Source: a virus. Taken from it: 13,009 nt of DNA. Below are positions 166-12,226 of the stretch, in pieces. Both the position numbers and the translations under genes were made by a program. The stretch lies in UHGV virus genome UHGV-1799913, one strand, 5' to 3'. Each line of letters begins with the position of its first letter. Positions within the stretch are counted from its first letter, which is position 1. The notes under the pieces were generated by a model. The model saw only the letters and a list, made by a program, of their open reading frames with translations. It searched no databases and was not told where the DNA came from.

Positions 166-320
166 GCTGCCACCTGCTTTTCGTTAAGTTCTTCAGCCAG
201 TCGTTGCGCCTTCAGTGGGTTGGTAACGACATCACCCCACGGCAGCAACCATCCGTTTTTCTCTTTGAGCCAGGGAAGGCGCAGTGTGCCAACCCTGATG
301 TCGTCGTGAGCGTGAGTCAT
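162..320 (-). CDS. hypothetical small phage protein (52 aa)
   Basis: Minus-strand ORF MTHAHDDIRVGTLRLPWLKEKNGWLLPWGDVVTNPLKAQRLAEELNEKQVAA, below the 60-aa track cutoff. GGAG about 8 nt upstream of the ATG; ATGA stop/start overlaps with both neighbours. No family recognised. Confidence 0.4.
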   Translation of the reverse strand: MTHAHDDIRVGTLRLPWLKEKNGWLLPWGDVVTNPLKAQRLAEELNEKQVAA

Positions 321-790
321 AGGATGGACTCCATTTCGTCGATGTAGAGGCCCTGAGCAATCAGGCGGCTACGGCGGGCGGCACGGGCTATGCACTCCTG
401 CCGTCTACCTTCCTGCGATTGCTCAATGGCGCGCCGGGTGAACAGGCGCGATTTGCCCTGCGGCGTCACAACCTTCGGCTTCGTGACCAGGTCGAAAGTC
501 CGGTCGCAGATGCCGTCCCCGTTGATCCACTTTTCCGACTCAACGATCTGCGCTATCTGTCCGGAGCCGCGGGTAATACCGTTGGCTACCCGGTTAAACT
601 CGATGAGCGTTACGCCAAACTTCTCAGCGATTTCGCTGCCGGTTACCGGGCGGCCGCGCGTCTGAATCGTCCAGATAACGCGCAGTTTTGAAACACTCTT
701 TTTGTGGAATCTGATCCAGATAACGCGCTCACGAAGGCCGGAGAATTGCCCGGTGCGCCCTGGCCTGCGGTAAAATGGTGTGCGTTTCAT
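317..790 (-). CDS. hypothetical phage early protein (157 aa), basic, possibly nucleic-acid binding
   Basis: ORF-track entry 317..790; start overlaps the upstream exonuclease stop (ATGA) and the stop overlaps the next start. Arg/Lys-rich termini. No family recognised from sequence alone. Confidence 0.5.
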   Translation of the reverse strand: MKRTPFYRRPGRTGQFSGLRERVIWIRFHKKSVSKLRVIWTIQTRGRPVTGSEIAEKFGVTLIEFNRVANGITRGSGQIAQIVESEKWINGDGICDRTFDLVTKPKVVTPQGKSRLFTRRAIEQSQEGRRQECIARAARRSRLIAQGLYIDEMESIL

Positions 791-1404
791 GCTGCACGCT
801 CTGTGATTTTCTGAATTTCCGATTCCAGATCTGCAAGGAAGCTCTTAACCTCAGATTCGATTTCGCGCGCCAGCTCTTCATCGAAATGAATCCGCTTCTT
901 GAAATAGGCGAGGTCAGGCGGCAGGCGATCATCGAAACTAACGAAATCACACCATTTCCGCCCGGTGCACATCATCTGTGCATGCATTTGCAGCATGTAC
1001 TGGCGCTTTGGCTCACCAGTTTTCAGCGTTTCAAGATGGGTCCAGGTGTTGGGGCATTTGATTTCGATAAGCCCGTCGTCGTTGACAAGTCCGTCCGGGC
1101 TGGCTGCGAATCCGGGTATGGTTGGGTGATCGATGAGCCCAACTTCAGTGATTGCCGCATTGAACTCATTCAGCGCGTACATTTCGCGTGCCACTGGCTC
1201 AAGTTCAGTGCCGCGCATCATCGCGGCATTCGAAAACCCTTCCTCCAGCTTCCCGGTCAGCCGTTGGCAAATCAGCTCGGCCATGTAGTTCTGGCGGCTG
1301 GTGGAGTAGCCCGACTTAGTCCGGGCCATGACATCAGCCAGGCGACTGGCTGTGACCTTGCCGCAGCGCGCAGCAAACCATTCAGGGGTGCGTTGCTCTA
1401 TCAT
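787..1404 (-). CDS. YqaJ-type viral recombinase exonuclease (PD-(D/E)XK; functional analogue of lambda Exo)
   Basis: N-terminus MIEQRTPEWFAARCGKVTASRL is typical of the YqaJ exonuclease family and sits immediately downstream of the Bet gene as an exo/bet pair. GGAGG 5 nt before the ATG at 1404; ATGA overlap with the bet stop. Confidence 0.8.
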   Translation of the reverse strand: MIEQRTPEWFAARCGKVTASRLADVMARTKSGYSTSRQNYMAELICQRLTGKLEEGFSNAAMMRGTELEPVAREMYALNEFNAAITEVGLIDHPTIPGFAASPDGLVNDDGLIEIKCPNTWTHLETLKTGEPKRQYMLQMHAQMMCTGRKWCDFVSFDDRLPPDLAYFKKRIHFDEELAREIESEVKSFLADLESEIQKITERAA

Positions 1405-2147
1405 TCAGCCTCCGTCTCTGCGACATTGACAGGTTCGGCGTTGTCGACAGCAAGACTCATGTCATACATGCGTCGTTTCTCAACTGCGCCGATCACCTGT
1501 TTCTCTTCGGCGCTCAGCGCCACCCAGAACTCCTGATACTTAACGGTTCCAAGGCGCGCGGCGGACTCACCTTTTGCGATCAGTTCCGGGCGGCGGCTAT
1601 CTGATTCATGGCCCGCATGAACCTCTGCCGTTGTTCCTTCAATTACTCGCTCTGCCTCATCCTGGTCGAAGATGCCAGCGAAACCAAAGGCCAGACGCGC
1701 GCACTGGATCAGCGTCTTGTGGCGAAGCATGCGGGTAGGGTGGGACTGCCATGGCTGAGTGTTGCGTTTGCACTCTCCCATGTACTCGGTGACGATGGTC
1801 GGGTGCTTACGGTCTTTGCGGTAAATCTTGCAGGTACACGCGCCTTCCTCCTTGTCGTAAGAGAACTCCATGCCGTCAAACTGAGGATGCTCGTTGATAA
1901 TGCGAGCCCATCCATCAACGCCGACGACCGGGACAATCCCGCCTTTATCTGGGAATGCGTAAATCTCTTTGGTCCATGGGTTCAGGCCGTACTGGTTGGC
2001 GACGATCAACAGGGCTGTAAACTGCTCGTCCGTGACGTTGCCACCTTTGAACGCTGTATTCTTCAGCGTATTCATCAGGTCTGTACCGGCATCCATGCCG
2101 AGGCGTGCGGCCAGTTTCCCGGCCATGGTGGAAAGTGCAGTACTCAT
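1401..2147 (-). CDS. bet: Bet / Red-beta single-strand annealing protein
   Basis: From the internal start, MSTALSTMAGKLAARLGMD...LLIVANQYGLNPWTKEIYAFPDK..IVPVVGVDGW.RIINE..QFDGM...CTC.IYRKDR.HP...TE.M.EC...PWQSHP.RMLRHK..IQCARLAFGFAGI.D.DEAER is near-collinear with lambda Bet as I recall it. Start set at ATG 2147 (GAGGGA RBS upstream) rather than the track start at 2162. Confidence 0.9.
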   Translation of the reverse strand: MSTALSTMAGKLAARLGMDAGTDLMNTLKNTAFKGGNVTDEQFTALLIVANQYGLNPWTKEIYAFPDKGGIVPVVGVDGWARIINEHPQFDGMEFSYDKEEGACTCKIYRKDRKHPTIVTEYMGECKRNTQPWQSHPTRMLRHKTLIQCARLAFGFAGIFDQDEAERVIEGTTAEVHAGHESDSRRPELIAKGESAARLGTVKYQEFWVALSAEEKQVIGAVEKRRMYDMSLAVDNAEPVNVAETEAE

Positions 2148-2165
2148 TGTTAAATCCCTCAAAAA

Positions 2166-2450
2166 TTAAAACGGGCAGCCGGTACGGTGTTCCCAGTCGT
2201 ATTCCGCCTGGGCGTAAGCAACTACCGAAATGAAATCGTTGTAGGCCTCGCCAGCTTTATCGCTGCGAAGCCCTTCGTATGGGCTGGAGTCTATCGGGAT
2301 CGTGAAGTGGAAGAGGCCGGACGGCTCTTTAGGCATCATGTCGATGATTTTCTGCGCCCGGTCGTCGATCCACTTCTCTTTCTCGTCGGTGATCTGCTGC
2401 TCAGCCCAGCGCCGATCTTCGATGCGGTCGTAAGTGAGGTATGCGTTCAT
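2166..2450 (-). CDS. gam: Gam-like protein (putative RecBCD inhibitor)
   Basis: Position immediately upstream of bet; N-terminus MNAYLTYDRIEDRRWAEQQITDEKEK resembles lambda Gam short form ([30 protein letters not shown], recalled). GAGG RBS before the ATG at 2450. Confidence 0.6.
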   Translation of the reverse strand: MNAYLTYDRIEDRRWAEQQITDEKEKWIDDRAQKIIDMMPKEPSGLFHFTIPIDSSPYEGLRSDKAGEAYNDFISVVAYAQAEYDWEHRTGCPF

Positions 2451-2457
2451 GGTTGCC

Positions 2458-3429
2458 TCAGTAATGAATTTTCGCGCAGGGGATCAGGTCATCTTTCAGA
2501 GCGGTAAGCACTTCGATAGCCTGCTCGCGGGTTAAGCTGGTTTGGCTGGTGAGCGCGTTAACGATGTTGGTGCCGACCGTCTTGCGGTGCTTAACGTCAG
2601 CTTCACGCTTTGCCTGCTCATCGGCGAGGCGCTTCTCTTCGGCCAGGCGGGCATCTTCGGCCTGTTTGGCCTTCAGGCGCTCGGCTTCAACCGCCGTGGC
2701 TTTTTCGCGTTCCGCCCGGGCTTCCGCTTCCTGCTTCTCGCGAGCTGCACACTGTTCCGCTTCGACGCGCTGGCGCTCCGCCAGTTCAGCGCGGGCTTTC
2801 TCTTCGGCTTCACGGCGCGCTGCGGCTTCAATCTCCGCTTTGTGCTTCGCTTCGGCATCGCGGCGGGCTTGTTCTGCCGCTTCCTGTTTCAGCCGCTCAT
2901 CACGTTCACGCTGAGCCTGTTCCGCCAGACGGCGCTGCTCTTCGCGGTCACGGTCAAAATCCTTGTTCATCAGTAGAGCCATTTCGTGGTCCGCTTCGAA
3001 CTTGGCAGCCAGCTCCTGATCGAACCTGATGTTCATCTCCAGCGCTTCGGCGTGCATCGCGTTCATGGCTTCTTCAGCCTTAATGCGTTCCTGCTCGGCT
3101 TCCCATTCGGTGAGTGGGCGGCGGGTCGCATCGCGCAGCTCGTCGCAGGCATCAACGAATCGCTTAATTTCGGCCTCAGCCGGACGCACAGCCTCTTTCA
3201 GGCGCTTCAGGTACTCACGGCCCGGCTTTTCGATTGCCGTCTTGCTGCGGGACACCTGCGCTGCCAGAGAGGCAACACGGTCACGGCCTTTCTTCGTGGA
3301 CAGGTCCGACACTTCGTTTACAGCCTGGCGGATTTGCTCAAGGTACGCGTCAAGGCCGCCCGCTACGTAAAGCACTGGGGCCTGTTCCGGCTTGATTTCG
3401 ATGACAGTTAAGTCCGTTACTTCGCTCAT
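2458..3429 (-). CDS. coiled-coil phage protein with a long ER/K-rich helical segment (possibly DUF1351-like)
   Basis: Track ORF 2458..3543. Start moved to the internal ATG at 3429 (MSEVTDLTVIEIK...), which is preceded by AGGAGA and avoids overlap with the upstream gene. Contains roughly 120 aa of almost pure E/R/K/A/Q (EEQRRLAEQAQRERDERLKQEAAEQARRDAEAKHKAEIEAAARREAEEKARAELAERQRVEAE...). Confidence 0.6.
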   Translation of the reverse strand: MSEVTDLTVIEIKPEQAPVLYVAGGLDAYLEQIRQAVNEVSDLSTKKGRDRVASLAAQVSRSKTAIEKPGREYLKRLKEAVRPAEAEIKRFVDACDELRDATRRPLTEWEAEQERIKAEEAMNAMHAEALEMNIRFDQELAAKFEADHEMALLMNKDFDRDREEQRRLAEQAQRERDERLKQEAAEQARRDAEAKHKAEIEAAARREAEEKARAELAERQRVEAEQCAAREKQEAEARAEREKATAVEAERLKAKQAEDARLAEEKRLADEQAKREADVKHRKTVGTNIVNALTSQTSLTREQAIEVLTALKDDLIPCAKIHY

Positions 3430-3499
3430 GGTTTCTCCTGAAATTTGGATGTGCAGATCCCGCCCGCGTAATGCCAGGCCGAACGGTTGAATAGGGTGG

Positions 3500-3709
3500 T
3501 TAGTGCTGGATAGGGTTGCCGTGACCGTCAAGAAGGACGTCAATCACGCAGTCACTGAGTCGGATTATTTCTGCGTCAGTGTGCAGGTATACCCATTTGC
3601 GCTCCTGAATGACTGCTGAGACGCGATATGTGCGGCCTTCATGCAATGCCATCATGCCGGGCGTGACGCACTGGCGAATGAGCGGGGTGGTGCCGTAGTG
3701 GTTGATCAT
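3500..3709 (-). CDS. hypothetical small phage protein (69 aa)
   Basis: Track ORF; GAGGTGAAGG RBS before the ATG at 3709; ATGA overlap with the upstream gene stop. No family recognised. Confidence 0.5.
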   Translation of the reverse strand: MINHYGTTPLIRQCVTPGMMALHEGRTYRVSAVIQERKWVYLHTDAEIIRLSDCVIDVLLDGHGNPIQH

Positions 3710-3864
3710 GCCTTCACCTCAACCTGTTCCAGGAGGCCAGCGATATTCATCTGTTGGCGGTTCATCGTCAGCTTTTCACGCGGGTTAGATACCGACGTCA
3801 GCTGCCACTCGTTATCGTTGAGCTTTTTGGCGGTGTACTGCTTGCCGTTGTGGGTGACTGTCAT
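3706..3864 (-). CDS. hypothetical small phage protein (52 aa)
   Basis: Internal start of track ORF 3706..3906: ATG at 3864 (MTVTHNGKQYTAKKLNDNEWQL...) preceded by AAGGTGGTG, 1 nt after the stop of the upstream membrane-protein gene. Confidence 0.45.
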   Translation of the reverse strand: MTVTHNGKQYTAKKLNDNEWQLTSVSNPREKLTMNRQQMNIAGLLEQVEVKA

Positions 3865-3865
3865 C

Positions 3866-4075
3866 TCACACCACCTTGAATAAGAACCAGCCCATACCGC
3901 ACACAATCAGGCCCACAATGGTTATTGCGGAAGACATGCGTACATGGTCAATGGCTAGTTTTGAAAGTGGCTGGCGATGTTCTTTTTTCGTCAGCGAGTT
4001 GATTGCTATGCCGAGCAGAAACGTCCCGACAAACCATAATGCGTATATCTTTAAGCCCAACTCCAAATCACTCAT
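3866..4075 (-). CDS. small membrane protein (69 aa, two predicted TM helices)
   Basis: Track ORF MSDLELGLKIYALWFVGTFLLGIAINSL...ITIVGLIVCGMGWFLFKVV has two hydrophobic stretches; AAGAGGA RBS before the ATG at 4075. Sits where lambda carries kil/cIII/sieB-type small genes. Confidence 0.55.
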   Translation of the reverse strand: MSDLELGLKIYALWFVGTFLLGIAINSLTKKEHRQPLSKLAIDHVRMSSAITIVGLIVCGMGWFLFKVV

Positions 4076-4206: not shown

Positions 4207-4232
4207 TATGAAAAAGCCCTCCGGAGAGGGCT
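4207..4232 (-). terminator. putative rho-independent terminator (minus strand)
   Basis: Minus strand reads GCCCTC-TCCG-GAGGGC followed by TTTTT (plus 4211-4231), directly after the stop of the 50-aa peptide gene. Confidence 0.5.
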
Positions 4233-4383
4233 ATGTGTTTCGCTTAATCATTGGGTAAGCCAGAGCAATTACACCTGCCACTAATACCCCGTCAGCCAGC
4301 ATCGACATCAACTTCCCGGTGAAATCGACAGCAATCACCAGGAAGAGGAGGACGCCGATAATCAACCAGCGCAATTTATCCAT
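4231..4383 (-). CDS. small hydrophobic membrane peptide (50 aa)
   Basis: Hand-translated minus-strand ORF MDKLRWLIIGVLLFLVIAVDFTGKLMSMLADGVLVAGVIALAYPMIKRNT, below the track cutoff. Its ATG overlaps the TerB-like stop (ATGA); strongly hydrophobic; followed by a terminator. Confidence 0.4.
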   Translation of the reverse strand: MDKLRWLIIGVLLFLVIAVDFTGKLMSMLADGVLVAGVIALAYPMIKRNT

Positions 4384-4808
4384 CAGATATAAGCGTCGAG
4401 TGATAACTGAAGAGCCTGAGCGATTTTCTTCAGCTGTTTTTCTTCGTCTTCGCCGATGCCGTCGTTATCGGCTACGTCAAGGCACAGGCAGAGCACATCA
4501 ACTGCGTCTGGAGTATCTGCCACATCTGCAAGTTCGCGCATTGCCTGGGCATTAGCAGAGCGAGGGGACGCTTCGTACTGTGCGCGAATGTTGCTGCTCA
4601 TGATGGCGATCTCACCTGCGAAAGCAGAGAACGCTGGTTTTGCCTGAATGGTTTTCTCCAGCGTTGCAATTTCTGACGCATCACAAGTACCGTCTGCATA
4701 AGCGATCGAGTAACAGCCCCACACCGTTGCTTCAACTGCGTCGCGGTTTTCCATCTTCTTCACTTCGACGATCGCCTTGCGTGCTTTTTTCTTAAACAGT
4801 CCGAACAT
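4383..4808 (-). CDS. TerB-family (tellurite-resistance TerB-like) protein, 141 aa
   Basis: Two ADG/acidic repeats (AYADGTCDASEIATLEK and DVADNDGIGEDEEKQLKKIAQAL) and an MFGLFKK N-terminus resemble E. coli TerB (MSFFDKVK...VASDGVSSEEK...AKSDGNFDDDEK, recalled). AAGAGGG RBS before the ATG at 4808. First sizeable gene downstream of the presumed pL. Confidence 0.55.
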   Translation of the reverse strand: MFGLFKKKARKAIVEVKKMENRDAVEATVWGCYSIAYADGTCDASEIATLEKTIQAKPAFSAFAGEIAIMSSNIRAQYEASPRSANAQAMRELADVADTPDAVDVLCLCLDVADNDGIGEDEEKQLKKIAQALQLSLDAYI

Positions 4809-5035
4809 TTGACTACCCTCTTGGTTTAAGCCATCAACTTGATGGCGACATTTGACTTACCGTCAGCCCCTCGTAAAGAGCTGCTGGTAAATCGTGTTGC
4901 CATAATTGCCGCTCCTCCTGAGCCCGCCTATGGTCCGACGCATGGTTTACTGTCGCGCCGTTCGACTGACCGAATCTCCACTTCGCTGCTGGCTAACTTC
5001 GCTCAGCTGTCGATGTTTCGTTTCGATGGGGTGAA

Positions 5036-5110
5036 TTTAGCGTGATGCTAAATTATGCGCAATAGCAAAATGCTAAATTGTTGAATGGTTTTATTTAGCG
5101 TATTGATTAA
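5036..5110. promoter_or_regulatory. OL-like operator cluster / presumed pL region
   Basis: Three 17-mers matching TTTAGC-N5-GCTAAA: 5036-5052 tttagcgtgatgctaaa (perfect half-sites), 5061-5077 aatagcaaaatgctaaa, 5094-5110 tttagcgtattgattaa. Lies between the cI terminator and the leftward operon. Confidence 0.45.
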
Positions 5111-5149
5111 TAAGCGATTAAAAATTTACAGCGAAGGAATTCGGGACGT

Positions 5150-5173
5150 AAAAAAGCCCGCGCGATGGCGGGC
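5150..5173 (-). terminator. putative rho-independent terminator downstream of the repressor gene
   Basis: Minus strand: GCCCGC-CATCGC-GCGGGC stem-loop followed by TTTTTT (plus A-run 5150-5155), about 20 nt after the cI stop. Confidence 0.5.
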
Positions 5174-5193
5174 TTGAGGGGTTTTGCGTGAGG

Positions 5194-5871
5194 TTATGGG
5201 ATGTTTAGTATTTTGGCATCAACCACAACGCCGATGATTTTGCAGTTTCCATTAATTTCTAGCATTGGATATGCGGGGTTAAGGGGCTTTAGGAAGCGTC
5301 TGCCGGCATCGATTACAAGCTTCTTAAAGGTCGCTTCGTTATCGCCTTCTAGCTTCGCGACAACCAGCTTTCCGTTGCGCGGCTCGACTTCAGGATCAAC
5401 AAGTATCGCTGCTCCCTCGGGTATGCTCAGTCCAGCCGGGGAGGTCATAGAATCCCCTTTAACGTCCAGCCAGAATGAATCTTCTGAGCAGTCAACAGTC
5501 GTGTCATACCAGCGATCTATCGCTCTTCGGTGATAAGGTTCTACAGCTTCCATCCATTGCCCCGCGCTTACCCAGCTGATTACAGGATAACTTCCTTTTG
5601 TCTCGTTCAGTCCTCGAAATGAAACGTTCGAAGGTTCTTCACTGGCGTGTAAAACATCCATCCAGCCAAAAGGCAGATCAAGCGCAGTTTCAATTTTGCG
5701 AGCCATCTTATCGCCGATATTGCGATGAGGGTTTGGTCCCAGTAGCTGGCTAAGCGCAGCCGGACTTGTCTCGATGAGCTCGGCAAACTGCGCTTTGGTC
5801 ATTCCAGACTCGTGCTGACGCTTCTCGTACAGCGCTTCCAGGTTGGCTTTTCTGATTTCTTTATTTTCCAT
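5194..5871 (-). CDS. cI: CI-like prophage repressor, LexA/S24 peptidase family (HTH plus autocleavage domain)
   Basis: From ATG 5871: MENKEIRKANLEALYEKRQHESGMTKAQFAELIETSPAALSQLLG (HTH), an Ala-Gly linker site (WVSAGQW), and a C-terminal S24 domain with GDSM (Ser) and a downstream Lys (VVAKLEG). Divergent to the cro-like gene and flanked by operator-like repeats. The track start at 5988 is a TTG inside the operator region and is rejected. Confidence 0.8.
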   Translation of the reverse strand: MENKEIRKANLEALYEKRQHESGMTKAQFAELIETSPAALSQLLGPNPHRNIGDKMARKIETALDLPFGWMDVLHASEEPSNVSFRGLNETKGSYPVISWVSAGQWMEAVEPYHRRAIDRWYDTTVDCSEDSFWLDVKGDSMTSPAGLSIPEGAAILVDPEVEPRNGKLVVAKLEGDNEATFKKLVIDAGRRFLKPLNPAYPMLEINGNCKIIGVVVDAKILNIP

Positions 5872-6784: not shown

Positions 6785-6869
6785 GAGGCACAAGAAAAGA
6801 AAAAGCCCTTGAAGCGGTAACTTCAAAGGCCCTTATCACACTGTGTTACGCCAAGTAACGGGAGTAAGT

Positions 6870-10447: not shown

Positions 10448-10539
10448 AATAGGGTGCGGGGTTCGAACCCGCGGTACGGGTTTATAGCCCGTACGCCTCA
10501 TTATCAGTGAGGTGCCATCAACCACTCGGCCAACCCTCC
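10448..10539 (-). tRNA. tRNA-like element, type II (long variable arm), anticodon GAU by fold; imperfect acceptor stem, no encoded CCA; possible pseudogene or non-canonical phage tRNA
   Basis: Minus strand GGAGGGT-TG-GCC-GAGTGGTTGAT-GGC-A-CCTCA-CTGATAA-TGAGG-CGTACGGGCTATAAACCCGTACC-GCGGG-TTCGAAC-CCCGC-ACCCTAT. Cloverleaf has a canonical T-arm (GGTTCGAAC) and Ser/Leu-like D-loop (GCCGAGTGGTTGA), a 7-bp variable-arm hairpin, and a 5-bp anticodon stem with loop CU-GAU-AA. The acceptor has a G2-A71 mismatch and a G1-U72 pair. Confidence 0.5.
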
Positions 10540-11686: not shown

Positions 11687-12226
11687 GTGATTAATATCAT
11701 TGTTGATTCCAATGCTTGGAATTTTTTACATGTGAGTGGGATCTCCTTAAGCAACGAGCTTCTTAGCGATTATAACTTTCAGATAACATTAGAGGTGTCT
11801 CGTGAATTGCAGGAGTTAGTGGGCAAGGAAGGGAAGGAAGCTCTTTATGAATTCTTTGTAAGTGAGACTCAGTCGCTTGAAGAGCCCTTATGCTATTTTG
11901 GTTTTTACAATGAGTCAGTGCCTGCTGATGAACAGCGGTTTGGTGGATTTGGTGTTGGCGGGTTCGCATCTGTTCATCAAGATGATTATTTTCAGAAAAC
12001 ATTCCGCCAAATAAAATCATCAAAGCGTGGTATTTATTATGGCAATGAAGCTGACATGCTGATCGGGTCAAGAGGAATTGGGAACACTTTCATACTAACA
12101 GAAGATAATAATAAGTCAGGCCCGATGAAAGAGGCTGAGAACACTATCTTTGTTTCAAGAAAATTTCCTATGACTGTGGAGCAGTTTAAGGAATATCTTG
12201 ATCTTGAAATCTCAAAAACTCTTTAG
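11687..12226 (+). CDS. hypothetical protein (179 aa) with possible PIN-like nuclease motifs
   Basis: GTG start 10 nt after AGGAGG. N-terminal hydrophobic strand with Asp (IIVDSNAW), a downstream Glu-containing helix (TLEVSRELQEL), and a C-terminal NEADMLIGSRGIGNTFILTED segment recalling the VapC/PIN pattern (D...E...D...T-x-D). Assignment is motif-level inference only. AT-rich by eye. Confidence 0.5.
   Translation: MINIIVDSNAWNFLHVSGISLSNELLSDYNFQITLEVSRELQELVGKEGKEALYEFFVSETQSLEEPLCYFGFYNESVPADEQRFGGFGVGGFASVHQDDYFQKTFRQIKSSKRGIYYGNEADMLIGSRGIGNTFILTEDNNKSGPMKEAENTIFVSRKFPMTVEQFKEYLDLEISKTL

Follow-up and report, generated by a model that had tools for sequence, protein, structure and literature searches.

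A put antiterminator RNA in the early leftward leader

The leader of the early leftward transcript in this lambdoid Escherichia coli prophage very probably encodes a putL RNA of the HK022/HK639 family, located about 60 nt into the pL transcript on the minus strand (4967-4899). Coordinates refer throughout to the window, i.e., the whole 13,009-nt stretch of viral DNA analyzed (UHGV virus genome UHGV-1799913), positions 4780-5060 of which are 100% identical to a prophage of E. coli MLI104K1. Homology to known putL, retention of the fold and of the residues critical for function, and a fitting arrangement of the surrounding genes were observed directly. The original prediction had suspected that the pL leader is a control region for early antitermination and that this phage uses a scheme other than N. 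Both suspicions proved sound, since the leader holds a put RNA of the HK022/HK639 type, the left operon has no N-like gene, and the scheme is the one already described for the put RNAs of these two phages.

A megablast search of phage records aligned positions 4857-5029 (minus strand) with phage HK639 at 96% identity over 173 nt. The GenBank record of HK639 (HM208537.1, 34187-34312) labels the matching stretch, 126 nt in length, as a "putL-like antiterminator RNA" and places a putative pL just upstream of it and terminators downstream. The more sensitive blastn additionally matched the window to HK022 itself and to the annotated putL of HK75 and O276. HK639 put is reportedly the subject of King et al. 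2011, and the activity of HK639 putL is taken here from the GenBank annotation and from what that paper is said to contain. Other papers that mention HK639 do not treat its put, and HK639 is not named in the supplement of Hwang et al. 2022. Judged by sequence, the element in the window is near-identical to the annotated HK639 element and belongs to a family whose structure has been solved; to that extent, the finding is already known.

For a base-level comparison, putL and putR were cut from the HK022 genome and aligned to the window, using the numbering of the cryo-EM paper (PMC9378689). Positions 4967-4899 align base for base with both HK022 sites; this core corresponds to A3-C72 of HK022 putL, with a window coordinate given by 4970 minus the HK022 position. 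The blocks that are invariant across put sequences, namely CGAACGGC.CG, GUCGG, GGCG and CAAU, are all present. HK022 putL is inactivated by mutation at U28, G35, G45 or A64 (PMC9378689), and A9 is likewise critical according to older in vivo data cited in the same paper. All of these critical residues are kept in the window: A9 at 4961, U28 at 4942, G35 at 4935, G45 at 4925 and A64 at 4906.

A covariance model built from 37 put sequences found one copy in the window, with a score of 81.8 bits that is high partly by construction because the window sequence is in the training alignment. Run with filters off, the model detected no second put and no putR in the window, the next best match scoring 9.5 bits (E 0.3), and the same model recovered putL and putR from HK022 and putL only from HK639 (11.2 kb examined). 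Searches of Rfam 15 returned no put-like family, either for the whole window at gathering thresholds or for 4700-5250 at E values up to 10; such Rfam matches as occurred in 4700-5250 were weak chance ones confined to the region upstream of pL.

The published put fold is maintained by compensatory changes

In the cryo-EM structure of HK022 putL (PDB 7XUE, PMC9378689), positions 3-7 pair with 15-19 as a 5′ duplex and 10-14 with 30-34 as stem I, and there is a long stem II. The corresponding helices of the put core in the window, all on the minus strand, are the 5′ duplex at 4966-4963 with 4955-4952, stem I at 4960-4956 with 4940-4936, and stem II at 4933-4929 with 4904-4900, which carries an apical stem at 4923-4920 with 4914-4911. 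Four of five pairs form in the 5′ duplex and all five in stem I. Several of the window's departures from HK022 affect both strands of a helix: GACG/CGUC of the 5′ duplex has become GUCG/CGAC, the U48-A58 pair of stem II has become C48-G58, and the stem II base has changed from GAGCGC/GCUGCUC to ACCAUA/UAUGG. This stem II base, in the window as in HK639, is shifted in register by one base compared with HK022 and does without the bulged U68, which bends stem II in the HK022 structure (PDB 7XUE). The -10-like AACCAU motif of HK022 is kept.

These changes were placed in a wider set of sequences. A pattern scan of viral contigs yielded at least 120 put-pattern loci, about 100 of those listed with putL spacing, and removal of G+C-rich chance matches left at least 66 distinct cores with either putL or putR spacing. 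We aligned 37 of the 66 distinct cores and counted pairs on the published HK022 structure, including the 5′ duplex that crosses stem I. Because this pairing scheme comes from outside the alignment, sliding the pairing partners provides a fair control: on the 37 sequences, 93.2% of cells were paired in the HK022 structure versus 25-48% with the partners slid. Cells changed on both sides numbered 133 versus 47 in shuffles, with 0 of 500 shuffles of the 37 sequences reaching the observed count, and 11 of 22 put pairs had changed on both sides somewhere in this set.

Many E. coli prophages are defective, and one could therefore imagine the element to be a decayed, non-functional put relic in such a prophage, a reading with which the missing U68 bulge and the missing putR would agree. 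We regard it as very unlikely. The known critical residues are all intact and pairing is kept; the viable HK639 carries the same stem II variant and likewise only putL within the 11.2 kb examined; and the neighboring genes, among them those of the cI-like repressor, O, P and recT, have open frames whose family matches cover most of the profile. Moreover, the put core together with the hairpin that follows it here (SL3, described below) was matched in 32 of 5426 complete E. coli genomes. Of these 32, 22 match over 80% or more of its length, and 25 reach at least 95% identity.

A Shine-Dalgarno-like motif, a short ORF and a boxA-like string are parts of RNA hairpins

Attention had first been drawn to this leader by four features, all of which are present. 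About 228 nt separate the OL-like operators (last half-site at ~5036) from the TerB start codon (ATG at 4808), and this gap contains no N-like ORF. Within it, the minus strand carries AGGAGG (4919-4914) and then a 25-aa ORF, MATRFTSSSLRGADGKSNVAIKLMA, which spans 4903-4826 with its stop codon included (TAA at 4828-4826) and whose ATG (4903-4901) begins 10 nt after AGGAGG, or 9 nt after GGAGGA. A boxA-like string, GCTCTTTAC, is found at 4881-4873 (minus strand). The palindrome, too, is real and perfect over 17 nt; only its coordinates needed correction, to 4830-4846, one base below the 4831-4847 originally given. Taken singly, each of the four is within chance. The 25-codon ORF is unremarkable in this respect, and the palindrome, with its 8-nt arms and one central base, is one of 41 pairs of inverted repeats with 8-nt arms in the window. 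The conservation of the whole stretch, by comparison, is far beyond chance.

An octamer, GCTCTTTA, has three copies in the window versus 0.36 expected. Its other exact copies are on the plus strand at 2324-2331, the strand opposite leftward transcription there, and at 11840-11847, where it falls on the transcribed strand of the right operon within the ORF at 11687-12226.

Read on the put fold, the motifs take on a different identity. According to the alignments and the MFE fold, the first five bases of AGGAGG (4914-4919, minus strand) form the stem II apical loop (A51-G55), and its last base is G56, the partner of C50; relatives have AGGAUG, AGGAAG, AGGGAG or AGGAGG in this loop. The ATG of the 25-aa ORF corresponds to A67-U68-G69 in the 3′ strand of stem II, paired with U40-A39-C38, and the frame then continues through SL3. 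Starting from the equivalent ATG, the ORF is 9 aa long in one viral locus (L100), 14 aa in loci of the L027 type, 25 aa in the window and more than 30 aa in HK639 and locus L018, and the sequence differences among relatives within SL3 keep pairing, not amino acids. Finally, the boxA-like GCUCUUUAC (4881-4873) provides the upper SL3 stem with its 5′ strand and includes two bases of the loop, and the same positions in relatives read GCUCUUUG, ACUCCUGA, GGCAUUUA, GUCAUUUU or CGCUUUUG. The AGGAGG, the ATG and the boxA-like string are hairpin parts, neither translation nor Nus signals. The expectation that these leader elements would themselves be kept among relatives was not borne out: the ORF changes length, the boxA-like string changes sequence, and the palindrome lies outside the conserved element.

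The proposal of a nut-like region, in which GCUCUUUAC at 4881-4873 would serve as a boxA recruiting NusB/NusE, whether or not an N-like protein from elsewhere took part, has some points in its favor. GCUCUUUA fits the core of the rrn/lambda boxA consensus, the octamer described above is more frequent than expected, and phages phi80 and ENT1, which have the first ~50 nt of the leader in common with the window, possess a boxA roughly where put starts here. A boxA must be single-stranded to bind NusB/NusE, however, and the motif in the window is taken up as the 5′ side of an 8-bp helix that shows compensatory changes. The GCUCUUUA string is also unconserved in relatives, no boxB-type hairpin follows it (in the fold of 4800-5030, nothing but the 3′ half of SL3 and the palindrome hairpin, with its 3-nt loop, is found there), and Pfam and PHROGs searches of the window found no arginine-rich N-like protein in the operon. 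ENT1, moreover, has the SL3 hairpin plus a separate, real-looking boxA. We therefore consider a nut site at this position highly improbable.

An attenuator controlled by a leader peptide, with translation of the 25-aa ORF steering the downstream hairpins and thereby TerB transcription or translation, had been suggested as well. The Shine-Dalgarno-like AGGAGG 10 nt ahead of the ATG and the two hairpins (SL3 and the palindrome) within or at the end of the ORF gave this suggestion its appeal. Yet both AGGAGG and ATG are looped or paired parts of stem II, HK639 reads AGGAAG in place of AGGAGG, and an ORF whose length among close relatives goes from 9 codons through 14 and 25 to more than 30, with RNA pairing kept and protein not, lacks the conservation of a leader peptide. 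Terminator scans also found no terminator-like site in 4809-5027 and, between pL and the TerB gene, no leader hairpin with a U-tract, which leaves the attenuator scarcely credible.

Extremely improbable, too, is a protein-coding gene on the plus strand, which the NCBI pipeline called in MLI104K1 (NZ_CP116923.1) as a 67-aa hypothetical protein (RefSeq WP_072679098.1; 4842-5045) and whose antisense frame is open over the leader and put in 45 of 45 unique relatives among the matches listed: it begins and ends within SL3 and operator sequence, both variable, and differs in length, it would be transcribed into the repressed pL with no promoter found in a promoter scan, the conservation tracks RNA pairing, and the open frame carries no independent information because it lies within a nearly invariant RNA module. 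The 67-aa gene call is probably spurious.

In sum of these comparisons, the element has the early-transcript site, sequence core, fold and critical residues of the put family as well as no N-type gene, and it is without the defining features of a nut site or a leader-peptide attenuator.

A stable hairpin follows putL

Immediately 3′ of put, the minus strand can form a third hairpin, SL3 (4854-4893), in which a lower and an upper stem of 8 bp each are separated by a 2x2 internal loop and capped by a UACG tetraloop (4875-4872); it has a dG of -21.8 kcal/mol and a z-score of -6.2. In 11 related sequences, chosen by eye for likeness and scored on the window's own fold, 94% of cells were paired and 8 of 16 pairs had changed on both sides. 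SL3 is within the 126-nt putL-like feature of HK639, so it has perhaps already been described. The hairpin also occurs in ENT1, without put, and it has been kept across recombination junctions, being flanked by put and a different gene in the window and by the HK639 gene and a nut-like segment in ENT1.

Stable structure at this place extends to other putL loci. For 25 non-redundant classes among the matches listed, the 60 nt after putL stem II had a median z of -2.8 with 14 of 25 below -2, versus a median of -0.27 with 3 of 25 below -2 in control windows placed another 120 nt downstream (Wilcoxon p = 9e-5; z-scores from mononucleotide shuffles). Most of the listed putL copies, that of HK022 included, show a long stable hairpin of unrelated sequence within 5-15 nt on the 3′ side. 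A tentative interpretation, to which we would give a modest chance, is that a stable extended hairpin 3′ of the antitermination site, represented here by SL3, is a separately selected, functional module of the pL leader. If so, it might act as a folding insulator that spares put from mispairing with the variable downstream mRNA, as a barrier to backtracking, or as a site for RNase III or other processing. The lambda N leader contains a hairpin that is processed by RNase III. Like SL3, it is extended, imperfectly paired and located after the antitermination site but ahead of the first pL gene; unlike it in sequence, it offers a resemblance only, and SL3, with its ~18 bp-equivalents, would be a small substrate for RNase III.

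The palindrome (4830-4846, minus strand), which as RNA gives a 7-bp stem with a 3-nt loop and a dG of -9.9, belongs to neither neighbor. Homology with HK639 stops at 4857, and likeness to the upstream regions of TerB homologues begins near 4822, at the ribosome-binding site, so that the palindrome sits in a unique junction of ~35 nt between the put/SL3 module and the TerB module. It is conserved with neither flank, and the 35-nt junction is missing from HK639. We considered the palindrome as a part of the TerB cassette and rejected this, as it is absent upstream of the TerB homologues in LMessi, Klebsiella phage 5 LV-2017 and pPE4. Also rejected was a terminator function of either the palindrome or SL3: neither has a U-tract, and neither was called terminator-like.

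The pL leader as a mosaic

Upstream of put, three OL operators of 19 bp each can be read from the sequence at ~5036-5054, 5060-5078 and 5093-5111. The pL promoter on the minus strand has the -35 hexamer TTGCGC (5062-5057) and the -10 hexamer TAAATT (5039-5034), both of which align with the annotated -35 and -10 of phi80 pL and with the putative pL of HK639. A consensus scan found no strong sigma-70 match at pL, and the transcription start is therefore an inferred one, at ~5027.

Between this start and put lies a conserved 5′ leader that is predicted to fold (SL0, 4968-5027, minus strand; -18.1 kcal/mol, z -2.6), with AUCGAA near the 5′ end pairing with UUCGGU just before put. Across ~45 unique viral loci among the matches listed, with many different immunity regions, the 60-nt leader hardly varies, and a shorter version of it exchanges GAAAC/GUUUC for GAGAC/GUCUC. 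The recurrence of the same leader-put module behind so many immunity regions is in keeping with a cassette that is both functional and portable.

The first ~46-50 nt of the pL transcript (4984-5029, minus strand; phi80 L249 901-946, ENT1 L248 700-960) are also common, at 98%, to the N/nut-type phages phi80 and HK225 and to Enterobacter phage ENT1. After the common leader, phi80 continues with an annotated nutL consisting of boxA TGCTTTTTAACAA and core, followed by the N gene. ENT1 continues with a boxA-like TGCTCATTAAGAA, a middle segment of ~190 nt, the HK639 version of SL3 and then the first gene of HK639.

From such comparisons, the pL leader emerges as a mosaic of small RNA modules, in which an immunity-specific OL/pL is joined to the common leader, to put or nut, to a hairpin and to a variable first gene. 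Such mosaics are chimeras made by nature, in which the part played by the flanking hairpins could be examined. A sigma-dependent pause has been proposed to aid the folding of HK022 putL (PMC9378689); since put in the window is ~60 nt after the inferred start and not at +3, a pause of the HK022 type may not apply.

Further upstream, on the minus strand directly after the cI-like repressor gene, there is a strong intrinsic terminator (5154-5175) with an 8-bp stem, six G-C pairs and UUUUUU. It would stop repressor transcripts from entering OL/pL.

Genes upstream and downstream of a terminator in the left operon

The first two genes of the left operon encode a TerB/TciA-like protein (4383-4808, minus strand; Pfam TerB, PHROGs tellurite resistance) and a DUF3927/TciB-like protein (4231-4383, minus strand; Pfam DUF3927, PHROGs TciB-like). 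The TerB/TciA-like gene product is 79-89% identical to the copies in LMessi, Klebsiella phage 5 LV-2017 and pPE4. In LMessi and Klebsiella phage 5 LV-2017, the TerB/TciA-TciB pair is flanked by Q on one side and by the lysis genes on the other; in Actinobacillus phage pPE4, the lysis genes come directly after it. Its location elsewhere in other phages marks the pair as a mobile moron cassette.

Directly after the TciB-like gene, terminator scans identified an intrinsic terminator, tL (4215-4232, minus strand), with a 7-bp G+C-rich stem and UUUUU; the HK639 left operon has annotated terminators at the equivalent place. A put-modified polymerase would meet tL as its first barrier. Past tL, the distal pL operon (317-4075, minus strand; Pfam and PHROGs), whose expression would depend on read-through, contains two small genes of unknown function, kil (3500-3709), a 361-aa ORF, a gam-like gene (2166-2450), recT (1401-2162), the gene of a YqaJ exonuclease (787-1404) and a 157-aa ORF, the named genes all assigned on the minus strand by Pfam/PHROGs. 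No N-like protein was found by Pfam and PHROGs among the left-operon ORFs of the 13-kb window. The right operon encodes cro-like, cII-like/YdaT, O, P and NinB proteins.

By analogy with the published HK022 work, this put would bind RNA polymerase and permit read-through of terminators. The RNA is expected to fold as it emerges from the polymerase, with the 5′ duplex stacked on stem I and with a second, long stem II, after which it would dock on the β′ zinc-binding domain at the RNA exit channel and remain bound. A polymerase so modified would resist pausing and termination and might thus pass the terminator at 4232-4215, along with any Rho-dependent sites, to reach kil, gam, recT and exo; a phage N protein would be unnecessary. 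The two moron genes precede the 4232-4215 terminator, and their expression would not call for read-through.

Relation to HK639, HK022 and the nut-type phages

The closest described relative is HK639, which has the same arrangement of leader, put core and SL3, the same stem II variant (ACCAUA/UAUGG), a site in the same position, after pL and before the first gene, with downstream terminators, and likewise no putR in the right operon. Five substitutions distinguish its putL from that in the window, among them AGGAAG to AGGAGG in the stem II loop and UGCG to UACG in the SL3 tetraloop. HK639 differs further in its immunity region and in its first gene, which is gene 45 there and the TerB/TciA moron here.

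HK022 putL and putR share with the window the invariant core, the helices with their compensatory changes, and the critical residues, at an identity of ~79% over 63 nt of aligned core. Whereas put is located at +3 of the HK022 transcript, it is found ~60 nt in and behind a structured leader in the window; HK022 also has a putR, and the window has none. The nutL of phi80 and lambda, finally, is comparable in genome position and in its job of making pL transcription terminator-resistant. In phi80, though, the common leader is followed by boxA, the nutL core and an N gene; here, it is followed by put with no N gene. Antitermination by put works with the RNA alone, in contrast to N plus Nus factors for nut (PMC9378689).

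RefSeq labels the put stretch as nothing at all or as an antisense "hypothetical protein." Together with the lack of an Rfam match, this indicates that a well-understood RNA-only antiterminator goes unrecognized in prophages. The significance of the element is mainly one of annotation, and the known mechanism is unchanged by it.

Other RNA elements in the window

Two further elements outside the left operon deserve mention. Between the cII-like/YdaT gene and O, positions 6800-6859 (plus strand) hold a homologue of the HK639 "M3-like RNA," which follows the cII-like gene in HK639 as well; the surrounding 200 nt match HK639 at 91% identity. Read on the minus strand, its hairpin is a 15-bp stem plus U-run (6834-6801), placed like the terminator of the lambda oop antisense RNA. 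At least eight of the viral loci with put also have the M3-like hairpin, and at least six of these contain both parts of the element.

The other is a tRNA-Ile (GAT) call at 10448-10539 on the minus strand, opposite to rightward transcription (Rfam, 46.4 bits; ARAGORN). At 92 nt, it is unusually long, and an 11-bp G+C-rich hairpin (10446-10421, minus strand) follows directly after it.
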